This document shows, in pieces, positions 42,244 to 59,359 of a stretch of 64,000 bases of DNA; position 1 is the stretch's first letter, and the number at the start of each line of letters is the position of its first letter. Below the pieces are notes generated by a model. That model saw only the letters and a list, made by a program, of their open reading frames with translations. It had not been told where the DNA came from and ran no database searches. The stretch is from a virus. The stretch spans positions 64,001-128,000 of the IMG/VR virus record IMGVR_UViG_3300013101_002049. The stretch is one strand, 5' to 3'. Both the position numbers and the translations under genes were made by a program.

Positions 42244-44691
42244 ATGGATAAGGGAAAGAAAATTAGAGTTTTTGCGTATTGTGATTCACCAACTTGTGCT
42301 ACAGGATTTGGTACAGTTTCAAGGAATATATTCGAAGGTTTGTATAACACAGGTCGTTACGATATTGATGTGTTTGGAATTAATTATTGGGGTGATCCTC
42401 ATAATTTTCCGTATCGCATTTGGCCAGCAGGTACAAATAAAGATAGAGACCCTTATGGTAGGCAAAAAGCAGTAAGTATGATACCTCGTATGCAATTTGA
42501 TCTATTATTTTTGTTACAGGATTCATTTATTATGGATTTTTTGCCCGTTTTGTTGCCTCATATGAAGGAAAATAGCTCTAAATCTTTTAGATCAATACTA
42601 TATTTTCCGGTGGATTCTGTTTTGAAAGAGAAGTGGGGTAAAAATATTTCGGATGCTGACACTATCGTTGCTTATTCTGAATTTGGAAAGCAAGAAGCTT
42701 TGAAAGTTATGCCTAATCATGAGGATATGAAAGTTATACCGCATGGTGTTAATACTCGTGAATTTTATCCACTACCTAAGCATGAAGTTGAAGCTTTTCG
42801 TAAAGAATATTTTAAGTCAGAAGCAGATAAATTTATTATTACAAATCTTAATCGTAATCAACAACGTAAGGATGTTCCAAGAACTATTCAAGCTTTTAAA
42901 GAGTTTAGAAAACAAGTTCCTGAATCTATTTTGTATCTTCATATGGCTATGCAAGATCAGGGATGGGATTTACCTGAGATATGTAGACAGATTGGACTGG
43001 ATATTACTAAGGATGTTATTTTTCCGCAGAATTTTGGGCCTAATCAAGGTTATCCTCGTGAAATTGTTAATGCATTATATAATTCAAGTGACGTCATTGT
43101 AAGTACAACGCTTGGCGAAGGTTTTGGCCTTTGTTTAAGCCCCGATACTAATGTTTATACATCTAATGGTATTAAGACGATGGACGAATTAACAATAAAT
43201 GACGCTGTATTATCGTCTAATGGTGAATATAATAATATCGAAGCTATATTATCTAGGGACTACAACGATTATTTGTATGAAATAACTACTTGGTTAAGTA
43301 ATATACCTATAAAAGCATCGTCAGATCACGGTTTCCTAGTATACAATGATGAGTTTGTTTGGAAGAAAGCTTCACAATTAAAAATAGGTGATAAATTGCT
43401 TTTTCCGTGTAATTATGCGTATAAAAATGAGAATACTACTATTGATGTGCTAGATACTATTTATACATTTTTGAATAAAAGGCAAAAGGATAATATTGTA
43501 GTTAAAAATGGCCAGGTTCGTATACAATCGAATTTTAAACAAGAAGAAAATTTTATACCGAAATATATAAATATTGATAAAGATTTTTGTAAATTGATGG
43601 GTTTGTATTTGGCAGAAGGGTCTTTAAGTTCTGTTAAGATGGATTCTGTAACATTTTCTTTTAATAAAAATGAAAAGGAGTCTATCGAGTTTGTTATCGC
43701 TAAAATGAAAGACGTTTTTGGGCTAGATTTTTATGAACTCAAAGATAAACAGTTGAATTATAATGGATATTCTATAAGATTTTATTCTTCCGTAGTTGCA
43801 TATTTATTTTATGCATTATGTGGCAAAGGTGCTAGAACAAAGAAAATTTCAACTATATTATTAAATTTAGATAAGCCAATGTTAATTAAATTAGTAGAAG
43901 GTGTGTATATTGGTGATGGTAGTTATAGCGAGTCTCAATATGAAATATCTTTCTCTACAACTTCTAGAGATATAGCTTATAATTTACGTTTGATTTTGTC
44001 ACGTCTTGGTATATTATCATCTGTACGTACTTCTAGAGTAGAATATAAAGTGAATGTTAGTGGTGTGTCGCGAGAAAATTTGCAAAAACTATTTGGTATG
44101 AATGTTGTTAAGGTTGATAGAACAAGAGCAAATGAGCGGGCTTCTATAAGTGATGAGTATTTAATATTACCGGTAAAGAATATTGATAAAGTACATTATA
44201 AAGGAAAACTTATAGATATTCAAGTAGCAAATACTAATGATTTTGTTGCTGAAAATGTTATTGTTCATAATTCGTGGATTGAAGCCATGGCTACTAAAGT
44301 ACCAATTGTTATGCCAAATAATACAGCTATGTCGGAATTTATTACTGAGGACAGGGGGTATCTTGTTAATAGCGGCAGCAATCCAAGTTTATGGACAGTA
44401 ATTCCACATGATAATGAAGTTATGCGTCCATTAGTAGATGTTGATGATATGGTGAAAACTCTAGTTCATATTTATAATAATAGAGATGAAGCACGTACTA
44501 AAGCTGAAAATGCTTATAAATGGATTGTTAATGAGATGGATTGGCAGCGGGGTATTGTACCGCGATGGGTTGATGTTTTTGACGAAGCTTATGAATTGAT
44601 TCAGAGAGAGGATAAAGAGCATAGTGAGGATGTAGAAGCACTTGTTGACCAATTAGGTAAGAAAAAAATTATTGAGTCGGAGGAATTATAA
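42244..44691 (+). CDS. GT-B (GT4-like) glycosyltransferase containing an intein
   Basis: TGFGTV, IPHGV and NRNQQRKD motifs. GEGFGL|SWIEAMA (E-x7-E) is restored after splicing, giving a 435 aa extein. Confidence 0.9.
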   Translation: MDKGKKIRVFAYCDSPTCATGFGTVSRNIFEGLYNTGRYDIDVFGINYWGDPHNFPYRIWPAGTNKDRDPYGRQKAVSMIPRMQFDLLFLLQDSFIMDFLPVLLPHMKENSSKSFRSILYFPVDSVLKEKWGKNISDADTIVAYSEFGKQEALKVMPNHEDMKVIPHGVNTREFYPLPKHEVEAFRKEYFKSEADKFIITNLNRNQQRKDVPRTIQAFKEFRKQVPESILYLHMAMQDQGWDLPEICRQIGLDITKDVIFPQNFGPNQGYPREIVNALYNSSDVIVSTTLGEGFGLCLSPDTNVYTSNGIKTMDELTINDAVLSSNGEYNNIEAILSRDYNDYLYEITTWLSNIPIKASSDHGFLVYNDEFVWKKASQLKIGDKLLFPCNYAYKNENTTIDVLDTIYTFLNKRQKDNIVVKNGQVRIQSNFKQEENFIPKYINIDKDFCKLMGLYLAEGSLSSVKMDSVTFSFNKNEKESIEFVIAKMKDVFGLDFYELKDKQLNYNGYSIRFYSSVVAYLFYALCGKGARTKKISTILLNLDKPMLIKLVEGVYIGDGSYSESQYEISFSTTSRDIAYNLRLILSRLGILSSVRTSRVEYKVNVSGVSRENLQKLFGMNVVKVDRTRANERASISDEYLILPVKNIDKVHYKGKLIDIQVANTNDFVAENVIVHNSWIEAMATKVPIVMPNNTAMSEFITEDRGYLVNSGSNPSLWTVIPHDNEVMRPLVDVDDMVKTLVHIYNNRDEARTKAENAYKWIVNEMDWQRGIVPRWVDVFDEAYELIQREDKEHSEDVEALVDQLGKKKIIESEEL
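43132..44271 (+). mobile_element. Intein (380 aa) with a LAGLIDADG homing endonuclease
   Basis: Starts CLSPDT, has block B ASSDHGF and LAGLIDADG-like LMGLYLAEGS and EGVYIGDGS, and ends VIVHN followed by Ser. Confidence 0.93.
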
Positions 44692-45810
44692 ATGGAGATA
44701 CGGGGTATTAAATATGTAGGCCCTATATTTGATGTGTCTGGTTATGGGCAAGCAGCTAGAGGGTATGCTTTGTCATTACATAAATTGGGAATTCCTTTGA
44801 CTATTGATTCTGTATCTTTTGAAGAGGGGTTGGCTGATTTTGGAGAAACTAGTCGTATTTTAGCTCCTCTTGTAGATAAAAATATAGATTATAATATAGT
44901 AATTATCCATCTAACTGCTAATTTATTTTGTTCTAAGGCTGAACCTGGTAAAATGAATATAGGTTATTTTGTGTGGGAAACCGATAAAGTTCATGAGGAA
45001 TGGGTGGAAGAGGCCAATAAAAGTGTAAGTTTTGTGATGACTGCTTCTCAATGGGGAGCAGATATATTTAGAAAATCTGGTATAACTGTGCCGGTGGCTG
45101 CTATTCCTCATGGGATTGATGCTGATGAATTTGTTGATGTTGACCCATATACTGTTGCTGGTGTAAAACAGAATGCTTATAAATTTTATGGAATATTTCA
45201 ATTTACTGAACGTAAGCACCCGATGGCATTAATTAAATCATATTGGAGTGCTTTTCAAAATAATGAAAATGTAGCTCTTATTTTGAAAACGTATCGTAAT
45301 GGATTTGCGGATAGTGAAAAAGAGGCTATACGAGCAACAATAAAAAGATTAAAAAAAGTAACTAATATGCCTATATACCCACCTATATATTTAATATCTG
45401 AACGTTTGGATAGATCTGAACTATTAGGACTTCATAAAACATGTGATTGTTTGGTTCATTTGGATCGTGGGGAAGGTTTTGGTTTGGTGCCTTTTGAAGC
45501 TGGTGTATGCGGCAATCCTATATTAATTACTGGATGGGGCGGTGCACTAGAATATGCTAAGGAAGATAATAGTTATTTAGTTAATTATACTCTTACGCCA
45601 GTATTTGGCATGCCTTGGTCACCATGGTATTCTGGAAATCAGTTATGGGCTGAACCGGATTGTGGCCACGCGATTGAATTACTGCGTGAAATTTATAATA
45701 ATCAGGGTGAAGCACGTATCCGTGGTGAGAAACTGAAACAATATATTATTGATAATTTTAGTTGGGAAAATGTTGGTAGTAAAATAATAGAAACAATAAA
45801 GTCTTTGTAG
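44692..45810 (+). CDS. GT4-like glycosyltransferase
   Basis: SGYGQAAR, WETD, IPHG, ERK, RGEGFGLVPFEA. Confidence 0.88.
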   Translation: MEIRGIKYVGPIFDVSGYGQAARGYALSLHKLGIPLTIDSVSFEEGLADFGETSRILAPLVDKNIDYNIVIIHLTANLFCSKAEPGKMNIGYFVWETDKVHEEWVEEANKSVSFVMTASQWGADIFRKSGITVPVAAIPHGIDADEFVDVDPYTVAGVKQNAYKFYGIFQFTERKHPMALIKSYWSAFQNNENVALILKTYRNGFADSEKEAIRATIKRLKKVTNMPIYPPIYLISERLDRSELLGLHKTCDCLVHLDRGEGFGLVPFEAGVCGNPILITGWGGALEYAKEDNSYLVNYTLTPVFGMPWSPWYSGNQLWAEPDCGHAIELLREIYNNQGEARIRGEKLKQYIIDNFSWENVGSKIIETIKSL

Positions 45811-45820
45811 GAGATTAGAA

Positions 45821-58853: not shown

Positions 58854-58855
58854 AA

Positions 58856-59359
58856 ATGGAAATGATTTTTGAAAGACCGATAAAATTAATTGTCTCCGAA
58901 ATAGATGGAGTTCTTACAAATGGCACATACGCAGAGGATGAATTAGGTAATACCTTATATAAAGTTTTTAATCAAAAAGATTTTTTTGTGATTAATGAAT
59001 TAAAGAAGTATTATAAGGTAGTTTTTCTTTGTGATGATAATAAGATTAATTATAATATGTGCCAGCGTAAAAGTTTGCCATTTTATTGGGGTAAAGGAAG
59101 TAAAGGTAAGTATGAAATTATACCTAATATATTAAGGCGTTATGATGCTACCCCTGATAGTACTATTTACATAGGTTCGAAACTATCAGATAAGAAATGT
59201 ATGCAATTGATACCTTATTCTATGTGCCCGGATGATGTTGGTGATTATTTAAGAAGCATTGCTTGGGCTCCATTTATTGCAAAAGGTGGTGAAGGTATTT
59301 TTATTGAGTTGCTCGACCTTTTACAAGAGAATATAAGAAAATATATAAATTTAATATAA
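58856..59359 (+). CDS. KdsC-like HAD phosphatase with degenerate catalytic motifs
   Basis: IKLIVSEIDGVLT.G..KVFNQKD, YIGSKLSD and GGEG.F.E. Confidence 0.75.
   Translation: MEMIFERPIKLIVSEIDGVLTNGTYAEDELGNTLYKVFNQKDFFVINELKKYYKVVFLCDDNKINYNMCQRKSLPFYWGKGSKGKYEIIPNILRRYDATPDSTIYIGSKLSDKKCMQLIPYSMCPDDVGDYLRSIAWAPFIAKGGEGIFIELLDLLQENIRKYINLI

Follow-up and report, generated by a model that had tools for sequence, protein, structure and literature searches.

A membrane-free glycosylation island in a lineage of uncultured long-tailed phages, with virion fibres as candidate acceptors

What does a viral gene cluster glycosylate when it carries a long series of sugar-handling enzymes and no membrane component? 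The question is raised by a 64,000-nucleotide stretch of DNA (the window; positions 64,001 to 128,000 of IMG/VR record IMGVR_UViG_3300013101_002049), where 20 abutting or overlapping ORFs, all on the plus strand, occupy positions 42244–59359. Autonomous and free of membrane components, the glycosylation island that they form belongs to a widespread lineage of uncultured long-tailed phages of roughly 260 kb. Judged from sequence, O-glycosylation of virion fibres is the best reading of its role, held tentatively and with candidate acceptors only.

Gene content and conservation of the island

The cluster proteins were assigned with Pfam, NCBIfam and Atlas predicted structures, and the inventory drawn up in the initial annotation proved correct: eight glycosyltransferases, a sulfotransferase, two methyltransferases, three hexapeptide acyltransferases and a PIG-L deacetylase, accompanied by WecB, an oxidoreductase, an ADP-heptose-type module and a KdsC-like phosphatase. 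One of the eight glycosyltransferases (47593) and one methyltransferase (50800) were called from structure only.

42244–44691, plus strand: core GT4 #1, retaining GT-B glycosyltransferase of 815 aa, extein 435 aa (Pfam)
43132–44271, plus strand: class 1 intein with LAGLIDADG homing endonuclease, aa 297–676 of GT4 #1 (Pfam)
44692–45810, plus strand: core GT4 #2, 372 aa (Pfam Glycos_transf_1, 9e-8)
45821–46738, plus strand: GT2 (Pfam Glycos_transf_2, 1.9e-7)
46707–47600, plus strand: GT9-like protein, 297 aa (Pfam Glyco_transf_9, 6.6e-9)
47593–48273, plus strand: second GT9-like protein, 226 aa, lead only (Atlas model, TM 0.72 to a GT9 cluster; no match in Pfam or PDB sequence search)
48270–48905, plus strand: sulfotransferase (Pfam Sulfotransfer_3, 1.4e-17)
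48902–49879, plus strand: GT-B-like glycosyltransferase (weak Pfam match, E 0.004, below gathering score)
49863–50813, plus strand: GT-B-like glycosyltransferase (weak Pfam match, E 1.7e-5, below gathering score)
50800–51369, plus strand: class I SAM methyltransferase-like protein, 189 aa, lead only (Atlas structure, TM 0.95 to methyltransferase clusters; no match in Pfam search)
51387–52591, plus strand: two LpxD/NeuD-like hexapeptide acyltransferases, starts 51387 and 52115 (Pfam Hexapep; NCBIfam LpxD-type, 117 and 72 bits, both under cut-off)
52588–53517, plus strand: CgeB-like GT-B glycosyltransferase (Pfam Glyco_trans_1_2, 2.1e-24)
53557–54081, plus strand: SAM methyltransferase (Pfam Methyltransf_23, _12, _11)
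54084–57128, plus strand: amino-sugar block (Pfam), with WecB UDP-GlcNAc 2-epimerase from 54084 (NCBIfam wecB, 288 bits, over cut-off), PIG-L deacetylase from 55138 (Pfam; NCBIfam BshB1-like, 78 bits), GFO/IDH/MocA oxidoreductase from 55778 (Pfam) and NeuD/PglB-like hexapeptide acetyltransferase from 56643 (Pfam; NCBIfam NeuD_NnaD, 84 bits)
57130–58853, plus strand: ADP-heptose-type activation module (NCBIfam, Pfam), with HldE-I-type heptose-7-P kinase from 57130 (NCBIfam rfaE_dom_I, 341 bits, cut-off 345) and HldE-II-like adenylyl/cytidylyltransferase fused to a cupin from 58077 (rfaE_dom_II, 55 bits, cut-off 181; Pfam Cupin_2)
58856–59359, plus strand: KdsC/KDN-9-P-phosphatase-like HAD phosphatase, the island's last gene (NCBIfam, 55 and 49 bits, both under cut-off)

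The hydropathy scan detected no membrane protein among the 20; each has at most one segment of 19 residues at 1.6 or above, lying inside a Rossmann or beta-helix core. Extended to the whole 150-kb contig and to G001, a relative with a complete 269-kb genome, the same scan detected no polytopic protein, in agreement with the absence of membrane components reported earlier. The step taken from the missing flippase, polymerase and priming transferase to a cytoplasmic protein acceptor did not stand, because LPS-core, teichoic-acid and ABC-type pathways use peripheral transferases devoid of transmembrane helices together with host lipid carriers and host export.

Comparison of 22 related viral loci revealed a common order of exonuclease, GT4 #1, GT4 #2, variable genes, phosphatase and clamp loader, where both lead GT4 genes and the KdsC-like phosphatase are fixed across about 20 related contigs (GT4 #2 in 22 of 22 loci, with 518 homologues in a large database; phosphatase homologues likewise closing the locus in L006, L008, L016, L018 and G001). 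The genes between these fixed points differ almost completely from locus to locus: across 18 loci, the 160 cassette proteins represent 89 families, none of them in more than seven loci. This near-complete difference supports the initial suggestion of two conserved lead GT4s followed by a variable cassette. The GT2 and GT9-like genes form a semi-conserved second tier, with homologues directly 3' of GT4 #2 in L002, L003, L007 and L021, and the GT-B-like pair at 48902 and 49863 is kept in L003 and L007 at 60–82% identity. The G001 cassette is of different chemistry and equally soluble, encoding a formyltransferase, a C-methyltransferase, four methyltransferases, a GT2, a GT17-like protein, a deacetylase and a PseB-type dehydratase.

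In GT4 #1, Pfam matches to Glycos_transf_1, Glyco_trans_1_4 and Glyco_transf_4 flank the intein on both sides (Intein_splicing 1.7e-16, LAGLIDADG_3 1.5e-9), which runs from Cys297 to His-Asn676 ahead of Ser677, and intein-less homologues join at exactly these points. The insertion splits the EX7E motif (EGFGL|SWIE), both Glu residues of which are invariant across 13 homologues. The top PDB sequence match of an intein-less homologue is 3oy2, chlorovirus B736L; likewise, the AF2 model of GT4 #2 (pLDDT 92.7) has 3oy2 as its best Foldseek match (E 5e-19), followed by generic retaining GT4s. Identity to G001 is 60% for GT4 #1 and 51% for GT4 #2, against 45% for DnaB, 49% for PolA and a range of 42–49% for DnaB, PolA and exonuclease. 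Such conservation above that of replication proteins, along with inteins hosted in the conserved cores of the lead GT4s, would fit an essential, conserved acceptor. Complex prediction for GT4 #1 with GT4 #2 returned a score of 0.57 against 0.00 for the best control. Of 80 solved complexes 58 reach this mark, as do 2 of 110 mismatched pairs, but those passing at 0.60 or below comprise just 7 of the solved complexes together with both mismatched pairs. At least 74% of contacts agreed between runs, with partner pLDDT of at least 89, and the prediction lends weak support to a heterodimer.

T-x-S-G sites and candidate virion acceptors

The candidate acceptors lie at the other end of the window.

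9–32495, plus strand: virion-module proteins (Ig-like, ConA-lectin-like, propeller-like, fibre-like) with 36 T-x-S-G sites, matching Pfam Big_1, Laminin_G_3 and DUF2341 and the PHROG virion structural protein category

The T-x-S-G enrichment noticed earlier in the virion proteins was borne out, with 36 sites observed against 6.3 expected in 1–32.5 kb and 99 against 19.8 ± 4.4 in the whole contig (500 within-protein shuffles, maximum 34). T-x-S-G ranks first of 8000 gapped tripeptides of the a.bc pattern (z = 20), while the same counts gave no enrichment of T.NG, T.DG or the same three residues in other orders. The codons used at the sites match background, which places selection at the protein level. 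The virion module minus the tape measure holds 95 sites against 14.8 expected; 3 were counted in the internal tape measure against 2.4, 1 in all other proteins against 2.4, and none in the major head protein.

The excess is lineage-wide: T-x-S-G is the top non-Cys pattern in five relatives (G001, G003, G006, G007 and L055/G009; observed/expected 2.4–5.4), and no excess was seen in the controls, namely phage T4 (18 against 12.9 expected), Streptomyces phage Comrade (6 against 11.9) and the relatives' own replication and glycan proteins (18 against 21.4 in 126,000 aa). Individual sites turn over: only 15 of 42 aligned sites are common to G000 and G001, and the excess is kept in both. One distant relative, whose GT4 pair has diverged, retains x-S-G and has lost the Thr preference. 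An AF2 model places TVSG at a four-residue beta-hairpin tip and TPSG in a post-strand loop. Part of the excess is structural, since some sites belong to repeat signatures, among them the four blade motifs of the propeller-like protein at 23959–24768 and, in a fibre, repeats of the form Y-x-T-x-x-E-V-D-T-x-S-G.

On the virion-fibre reading, the GT4 pair, possibly as a heterodimer, would act in the cytoplasm, placing the initial sugar or sugars on the Ser (or Thr) of T-x-S-G sites, at strand-turn positions of those fibre and adhesin proteins of the phage itself that face outward. The enzymes of the cassette would then extend and decorate the chain ahead of virion assembly, here with heptose, ManNAc or amino-sugar and with sulfo-, methyl- and acyltransferases. 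If true, each relative would present a different "serotype" of glycan coat. The proposed link between enzymes and motif rests on co-occurrence in one lineage: no relative with only one of the two, the GT4 enzymes or the T-x-S-G excess, was found among those examined, and as they were never seen apart there is no discriminating contrast. Several observations count against this reading. Comrade has a homologous tandem GT pair and no accompanying T-x-S-G excess; envelope glycolipid pathways are the usual setting of GT9, HldE-type, WecB, KdsC-like and LpxD-like genes; the island lies within the replication module, adjoining thymidylate synthase genes; and GT-B folds are silent on the acceptor, that of B736L, the nearest structure, being likewise not known (PMC9614988).

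Alternative acceptors

The envelope-type genes (GT9 heptosyltransferase-like, HldE-type kinase and nucleotidyltransferase, KdsC-like, WecB, LpxD-like) could instead indicate remodelling of the host surface, which we regard as doubtful. Working at the cytoplasmic face, soluble or peripheral transferases would assemble or modify a glycan attached to a host lipid carrier or to lipid A-core, its export falling to host flippases, ABC transporters or ligases, and the changed surface of the infected cell could serve superinfection exclusion or prevent re-adsorption of progeny to debris. The LPS-core transferases WaaC, WaaF and WaaG and the teichoic-acid enzymes TarM and TarS have no transmembrane helices, so lipid-linked acceptors are compatible with the absence of membrane proteins, and the cassette hypervariability resembles that of O-antigen loci. 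However, GT4s better conserved than replication proteins across relatives with necessarily different hosts would be odd for host-specific acceptors, and nowhere in the complete G001 genome is there a priming phosphoglycosyltransferase, a flippase, a polymerase, a ligase or an ABC permease. The phages known to convert serotype are temperate ones with Gtr or Oac membrane proteins, and the lineage-wide T-x-S-G excess is left with no account.

That every island enzyme is soluble would also suit a product that never leaves the cytoplasm, or host or non-structural phage proteins as targets, which is rather improbable. The product of the island would then be an unattached oligo- or polysaccharide, methylated, acylated or sulfated, or else a small-molecule glycoside, and T-x-S-G would be an unrelated structural or other-modification motif, in keeping with the partly structural nature of its excess. 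Mycobacteria make cytoplasmic methylated polysaccharides, and the structural neighbours comprise some that act on soluble acceptors: GlgM, a methylmannose-polysaccharide mannosyltransferase, and synthases of trehalose phosphate type and sucrose phosphate. We know of no phage precedent for a soluble glycan product, though, and a purely intracellular one would give no reason for O-antigen-like hypervariability and would leave the genome's strongest sequence anomaly, T-x-S-G, with no enzyme.

DNA glycosylation by the island is unlikely, and very little probability is accorded to a GT4 pair that, with or without the cassette, modifies hydroxymethyl-pyrimidines as in T-even phages with the heptose module as donor supply. 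It is suggested by the position of the island in the replication module, between exonuclease and clamp loader, by a ThyA-family gene between the two GT4 genes in L012, L014, L015 and L016, by T4-like scarcity of palindrome avoidance in G000 and G001, and by the following gene of the window.

32573–33226, plus strand: short ThyA-family thymidylate synthase, archaeal type (Pfam 9.5e-12; TIGR03283, 81 bits full length, under cut-off)

Phage GT-B enzymes have been shown to transfer heptose, Kdo and glycans as large as trisaccharides to 5hmC; in one such cluster the GT-B is encoded with a cytidylyltransferase and a kinase/HAD enzyme, and GT-B genes often lie near ThyS, clamp and polymerase genes (Pyle et al. 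10.1101/2023.12.21.572611). Yet G001 keeps both GT4s while PF00303 ThyA/hydroxymethylase and PF00145 C5-methylase were not found in this complete genome by searches in which control genomes matched both families. ThyX (E 7e-66) occupies the position between its two GT4 genes, and this replacement by a non-orthologous enzyme argues for ordinary dTMP synthesis as the function encoded there. The G000 thymidylate synthase carries the Asn of the uracil type and is similar to the short enzymes of archaea. A Tet_JBP search matched nothing in G001 or in the control genomes and so carries no weight. The T4 alpha- and beta-glucosyltransferases are missing from the top 50 structural neighbours, and eight transferases with sulfo-, methyl- and acyl-decoration go far beyond any known base-linked glycan. 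Comrade, with its homologous GT pair, shows extreme restriction-site avoidance (GATC 0 against 423 expected) and thus does not rely on DNA shielding.

Comparison with known systems

Two adjacent GT-B (GT4-type) proteins, GtfA and GtfB, jointly prime adhesin Ser/Thr in the cytoplasm, and soluble transferases extend the chain. The island likewise has two adjacent GT4s and further soluble transferases; unlike GtfA/GtfB, both GT4s keep the first catalytic Glu, and no sequence relationship was detected. TibC/TibA and Aah/AIDA-I perform cytoplasmic Ser O-heptosylation of beta-rich surface proteins from ADP-heptose (PMC4358343), and the island shares an ADP-heptose-type module and GT9-like genes with the TibC systems. 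The modelled hairpin-tip and loop setting of TVSG and TPSG resembles the Ser-Gly acceptor sites of TibA, NSGG and VSGT (PMC4358343). The island GT9-like proteins differ from TibC: at 297 and 226 aa they are short, neither similarity to TibC nor an iron finger is detectable in them, and relatives keeping the T-x-S-G excess have not conserved them, the conserved enzymes being the GT4s.

With phage DNA glycosylation clusters (T-even phages; Pyle et al. 10.1101/2023.12.21.572611) the island shares GT-B genes near replication and thymidylate-synthase genes and heptose/Kdo donor modules; it differs in having many more transferases and decorating enzymes than any DNA glycan needs, and in the lack of hydroxymethylase, C5-methylase or detectable TET enzyme in the complete relative.

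Giant viruses (Megavirinae, chloroviruses) possess autonomous, clade-specific clusters of 6–33 genes that decorate virion fibrils, with rare bacterial-type sugars, transferases, methyl- and pyruvyltransferases and, in some, sulfate enzymes (PMC9614988). Chlorovirus B736L is the nearest solved structure to both island GT4s, at only 13–16% identity and with an acceptor that is not known; unlike the island, these viruses and their hosts are eukaryotic, and gene order is not shared.

The F1 mycobacteriophages glycosylate their capsids with GT genes lying outside the structural module (PMC11256854, citing Freeman 2023). Che8, Corndog and Myrna (Freeman et al. 2023, as cited in PMC11256854 and PMC12619734) likewise carry soluble GTs and methyltransferases outside the structural module, O-glycosylating their own virion proteins in the cytoplasm as is proposed here. 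They have 2–4 genes for transferases, and their glycans sit on the C-termini of capsid and tail-tube subunits. Unlike these, the major head protein here has no site, and the island combines eight transferases, nucleotide-sugar synthesis and sulfo- and acyl-decoration in a fixed GT4 pair with a swappable cassette, its candidate sequon, proposed from sequence, being internal to fibres and adhesins.

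Gene content and setting of the glycan island

The IMG/VR viral contig (150,128 bp, CheckV completeness 57%, about 32% GC), of which the window covers bases 64001-128000, carries nearly all of its genes on the + strand. Its modules around the island, together with the island genes discussed individually, are arranged as follows.

Upstream of the window: major head protein, fibre-like genes and a 7,531-aa tape measure
Window 1-32 kb: large Ig-like, lectin-like, propeller-like and fibre-like proteins
From window 32.5 kb: replication module with a short ThyA-type thymidylate synthase, MazG-like protein, sliding clamp, UvsX, DnaB, primase, RuvC and exonuclease
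42244-59359, + strand: glycan island of 20 genes, directly after the exonuclease-ending part of the replication module
42244..44691, + strand: first GT4 glycosyltransferase
44692..45810, + strand: second GT4 glycosyltransferase
58856..59359, + strand: closing KdsC-like phosphatase
3' of the island: clamp loader, Pol A and dUTPase

The clamp loader (59497-61482, 661 aa) combines a PhoH-like ATPase family match in its N-terminal half (phrog_32482, aa 45-369) with a DNA polymerase III delta'/AAA part, and its homologue in the complete related genome G001 has 358 aa only. A 642-aa protein at 4064-5992 matches HNH or homing endonucleases in PHROGs (431 bits) and also holds Pfam Mom-family (34.5 bits, aa 462-621), CapR and REase_MTES_1575 domains; since its paralogues adjoin the GT4 pair in many relatives and two copies reside in G001, it behaves like a mobile element. 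A scan for promoters and terminators gave no excess above shuffles.

Pfam, NCBIfam and a protein atlas were used to compile the island inventory, and the ORF listing returned the same 20 genes that the initial annotation had described. Eight are glycosyltransferases, namely two GT4, one GT2, one GT9, one GT9-like by structure only, two weak GT-B assignments and one CgeB-like protein, and these are accompanied by a sulfotransferase, three hexapeptide acyltransferases, a PIG-L deacetylase, a GFO-type oxidoreductase, two methyltransferases (one called by predicted structure alone) and a WecB scoring above its cut-off. With regard to the ADP-heptose pathway, a putative heptose-7-P kinase (HldE-type) matches TIGR02198 over its full length with 341.4 bits against a cut-off of 345, and a nucleotidyltransferase-cupin fusion scores 55 bits against a cut-off of 181.5 for TIGR02199 (heptose-1-P adenylyltransferase), its generic cytidylyltransferase domain being clear. 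No SIS domain was found within the island for GmhA, and the island phosphatase is KdsC-like, not GmhB; the cupin fused to the nucleotidyltransferase might stand in for the GmhA isomerase.

By hydropathy scan, which is not a trained predictor, the island encodes no membrane protein, and no ORF of the contig or of complete G001 has the more than three hydrophobic segments sought for polytopic priming, flippase, permease, polymerase or ligase proteins. The cassettes of 22 related loci, i.e. the variable genes between the GT4 pair and the closing phosphatase, are likewise devoid of polytopic membrane proteins. The polytopic membrane parts that characterize Wzx/Wzy and ABC-transporter O-antigen or capsule loci and Gtr serotype converters are missing from the island.

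The GT4 pair and its cassette among relatives

The 22 IMG/VR loci share a common order of exonuclease, first GT4, second GT4, variable genes, KdsC-like phosphatase and clamp loader; around the GT4 pair, some of them carry insertions of homing endonucleases, inteins or a thymidylate synthase gene. In the 18 non-redundant loci, 160 cassette proteins were grouped into 89 families, 61 of them singletons and none occurring in more than seven loci. Between the contig and G001 (268,764 bp, CheckV 100%), the two GT4s are 60% and 51% identical, with DnaB at 45%, Pol A at 49% and the exonuclease at 42%. The G001 cassette differs in its chemistry and is likewise without membrane proteins, comprising four methyltransferases, DXD, GT2 and GT17-like transferases, a deacetylase, a sugar formyltransferase, a C-methyltransferase, a PseB-type dehydratase, an RmlD-like reductase and WecB. 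Locus L008 lacks a cassette altogether: the phosphatase alone accompanies its two GT4s, and a lectin-type adhesin gene comes next. This comparative anatomy lends good support to the earlier guess of a conserved GT4 core with a variable cassette.

A lectin-type adhesin gene directly 3' of the island and before the clamp loader was observed at L008:11656-14271, in L016 at about 20381-20839 and in L018 at about 20246-20575; it combines DUF2341 and Laminin_G_3 and has a domain like the window protein at 23959-24768.

The AF2 model of the second GT4 (pLDDT 92.7) displays the two Rossmann-like domains of the GT-B fold, and its more than 500 Foldseek matches are all GT-B, the top 50 being GT4-type. 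Chlorovirus B736L is the first structural neighbour, followed by generic retaining GT4s; as generic enzymes do not reveal an acceptor, these neighbours were dropped as a clue to it. The EX7E motif of the second GT4 reads EGFGLVPFE, its first Glu being invariant and its second position Glu in 29, Thr in 9 and Ala in 2 sequences (n=42), and that of the first GT4 reads EGFGL, then SWIE after an intein, both Glu being invariant in 13 sequences. With Pfam Glycos_transf_1 (cut-off 26.4 bits), the second GT4 scores 32.3 bits and the first 25.5 bits, as the intein splits its domain. This LAGLIDADG intein of 380 residues (aa 297-676) lies inside the catalytic EX7E motif and is of class 1, running from C297 to HN676 with S677 following, and consists of a Hint splicing domain with a LAGLIDADG insert. 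Intein-less homologues (L003, L007 and others) are without exactly this stretch and join precisely at the insertion point. The second GT4 carries its own LAGLIDADG intein in L007:10001-12211, L016:10001-12241 and L021:10001-11848, so that both core glycosyltransferases are intein targets in the lineage.

A large protein database holds 518 homologues of the second GT4, more than 120 of them above 54% identity, originating from marine sediment and other metagenomes on contigs of up to 296 kb. Domains about 26-31% identical to it recur three to six times within giant proteins of 1,000-5,089 aa (P0141, P0144, P0150, P0188) from bacterial metagenome-assembled genomes, e.g. Brocadiales. Complex prediction for the two GT4s gave a score of 0.57 (best control 0.00), with runs agreeing in at least 74% of contacts and partner pLDDT of at least 89. 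Of 80 solved complexes 58 attain the mark used, as do 2 of 110 mismatched pairs, and at scores of 0.60 or below it is passed by only 7 of the 80 plus both mismatched pairs; the model lends weak support to a putative heterodimer.

The T-x-S-G motif in virion-module proteins

The pattern Thr-x-Ser-Gly (T-x-S-G), a candidate glycan acceptor site, occurs 99 times in the contig's proteins, against 19.7 expected by composition and 19.8 +/- 4.4 (maximum 34) in 500 within-protein shuffles, and it ranks first of 8000 a.bc patterns (z = 20, the next patterns having z below 10). Virion-module proteins other than the tape measure hold 95 of the sites against 14.8 expected, the tape measure 3 against 2.4 and all remaining proteins 1 against 2.4, and no site falls in the major head protein. 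At these sites, codons of the two Ser families occur as often as in the background, which places the signal at the protein level, and a DNA-level motif was rejected for this reason. A generic property of beta-turns or fibres was rejected as well, considering that T.NG and T.DG are not enriched, that T/S/G permutations on the same or neighbouring layouts give 11-64, and that neither whole T4 (18 against 12.9 expected, rank 484) nor Streptomyces phage Comrade (6 against 11.9) has an excess. The replication and glycan proteins of the 22 relatives (126,000 residues) contain 18 sites against 21.4 expected.

Some T-x-S-G sites are clearly structural repeat signatures, as in four propeller-blade motifs (23959-24768) and a recurring fibre repeat. 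In the AF2 model of a small motif-rich protein, confident in its N-terminal half alone, TVSG forms a four-residue beta-hairpin tip, TPSG a post-strand loop, and one site lies within a strand. Directly 3' of the major head protein, five fibre-like genes (contig 7263-20349; L075) hold 3, 6, 7, 8 and 13 sites and have common repeat modules of the F-x-x-T-V-S-G-V-x-P-x-x-D-Y-H-L-T type.

T-x-S-G is also the top non-cysteine pattern in the relatives G001, G003, G006, G007 and L055/G009 (observed/expected 2.4-5.4). Only 15 of the contig's 42 alignable sites recur as T-x-S-G in G001; with the excess present in both genomes, this indicates that the sites turn over. Enrichment in G005, a distant relative with a GT4 pair of only 26-31% identity, falls on G.SG, N.SG, A.SG and Y.SG, which retain the Ser-Gly core and relax the preference for Thr. 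In several of G001, G005, G007 and the pooled loci L002-L023, no gapped tripeptides are more over-represented than patterns of the Cys-x-x-Cys type (C.KC, C.HC, C.NC, C.WC, C.YC), which suggests many small zinc-ribbon-like proteins in these relatives.

Comrade was set aside as an independent-lineage test; it has a homologous tandem glycosyltransferase pair and no T-x-S-G excess, and is uninformative for the enzyme-motif link because its sequon or function may differ. The related-loci search with the propeller-like protein (23959-24768) gave no match and the alignment search with a 522-aa structural protein gave two new contigs only; neither search found a relative having structural proteins and lacking the GT4 pair.

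Target of the glycan and comparison with known systems

The observations of the initial annotation, i.e. inventory, core-plus-cassette and T-x-S-G, held up, but its step from absent membrane components to an acceptor protein in the cytoplasm does not strictly follow. The transferases of LPS cores and teichoic acids are peripheral enzymes without TM segments; they act on host lipid-linked acceptors and rely on host machinery for export. O-glycosylation of virion fibres is nonetheless the best reading of the sequence evidence, with chances a little short of even. Fibre and adhesin proteins, folded or still folding, would be primed in the cytoplasm by the GT4 pair at the Ser of T-x-S-G; donors (ADP-heptose-type, UDP-ManNAc and modified amino sugars) would come from the cassette, whose enzymes would extend the chain and decorate it, each step past the gene inventory being one that we infer. 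It is a tentative proposal that T-x-S-G might be a true O-glycosylation sequon read by the conserved GT4 pair on fibres and adhesins, with swappable cassettes giving each phage its own complex glycan "serotype" (heptose-containing, sulfated, methylated, acylated).

Remodelling of the host envelope would suit the GT9, HldE, KdsC-like, WecB and LpxD-like families, but the high conservation of the core GT4s across relatives and the complete absence of priming and export genes from a complete genome speak against it, and T-x-S-G would stay unexplained; we regard it as unlikely. A soluble product or another, non-virion target appears more doubtful still.

DNA glycosylation is the least probable target, and only a slight chance is left to it. 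Pyle et al. (10.1101/2023.12.21.572611) showed that phage GT-A and GT-B enzymes can attach hexose, HexNAc, heptose, Kdo and chains as long as trisaccharides to 5hmC. One of their clusters, which adds heptose, comprises a kinase/HAD enzyme, a cytidylyltransferase and a GT-B, and GT-B genes are often found near ThyS, clamp and polymerase genes. The island's context resembles those clusters, and a ThyA-like gene lies between the two GT4 genes in four relatives (L012, L014, L015, L016). However, complete G001 has neither the ThyA family (PF00303) nor a C5-cytosine methylase (PF00145), both of which were matched in control genomes, and hence neither source of hydroxymethyl-pyrimidine (ThyA-family hydroxymethylase, or C5-methylase with TET/5mYOX); the Tet_JBP (PF12851) search left the control genomes unmatched too and is uninformative. 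ThyX fills the slot between the G001 GT4 genes (L035:15926-16678), a non-orthologous replacement that argues for plain dTMP synthesis, and the ThyA-like gene as a hydroxymethylase feeding DNA glycosylation was rejected as the main reading on these grounds. The contig's own ThyA-type enzyme (32573-33226) combines the catalytic Cys with the uracil-type Asn and matches a short archaeal thymidylate synthase model over its full length, T4 enzymes lie outside the top 50 structural neighbours of the second GT4, and a set of eight transferases plus sulfation, methylation and acylation is far too large for a base modification. Palindrome avoidance is weak in the contig and G001, which is neutral and fits modified or unmodified DNA.

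In the window, the ThyA-type gene lies 9 kb upstream of the GT4 pair and is followed by a small MazG-like ORF (33308-33592). In Comrade (NC_048728.1; L039-L046), the tandem pair, 25-30% identical to the second GT4, sits beside ribonucleotide reductase, 3 kb from ThyX; that genome has no GATC (423 expected) and misses twelve six-base palindromes, an extreme avoidance of restriction sites implying that it does not shield its own DNA.

Should T-x-S-G prove to be such a sequon, no earlier phage system of protein glycosylation would be known that is sequon-directed and cassette-diversified; its analogue would be the fibril glycosylation of giant viruses. Should virion-fibre O-glycosylation prove correct, glycosylated virions, so far described from a few actinobacteriophages, would also be a trait of a widespread jumbo-phage lineage of sediment and aquatic settings. 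Large environmental phages would then routinely make elaborate glycan coats without membrane machinery, and the hypervariable gene islands inside phage replication modules would be explained. Sequon, primer pair and interchangeable extension cassettes would constitute a portable cytoplasmic O-glycosylation toolkit, with a short peptide address and a two-enzyme primer testable in E. coli. Even with DNA or the host envelope as the target, the island would far exceed every such phage system known in complexity.

Among known systems, TibC/TibA heptosylation has the Ser-Gly context and the predicted donor in common with the island (PMC4358343). The TibC-like architecture of bacterial autotransporter heptosyltransferases (N-terminal beta-barrel, GT9-like core, Cys4 iron finger, about 400 aa) is absent from the island, whose GT9-like proteins measure 297 and 226 aa and in a PDB sequence search retrieved WaaC at E 0.017 only and no TibC; GT9 is not conserved in the phage lineage. 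Two known systems come closest. One is the virion glycosylation of mycobacteriophages, which involves few genes and modifies C-terminal sites (PMC11256854, PMC12619734); the other is found in giant viruses, whose glycosylation clusters are clade-specific (PMC9614988).
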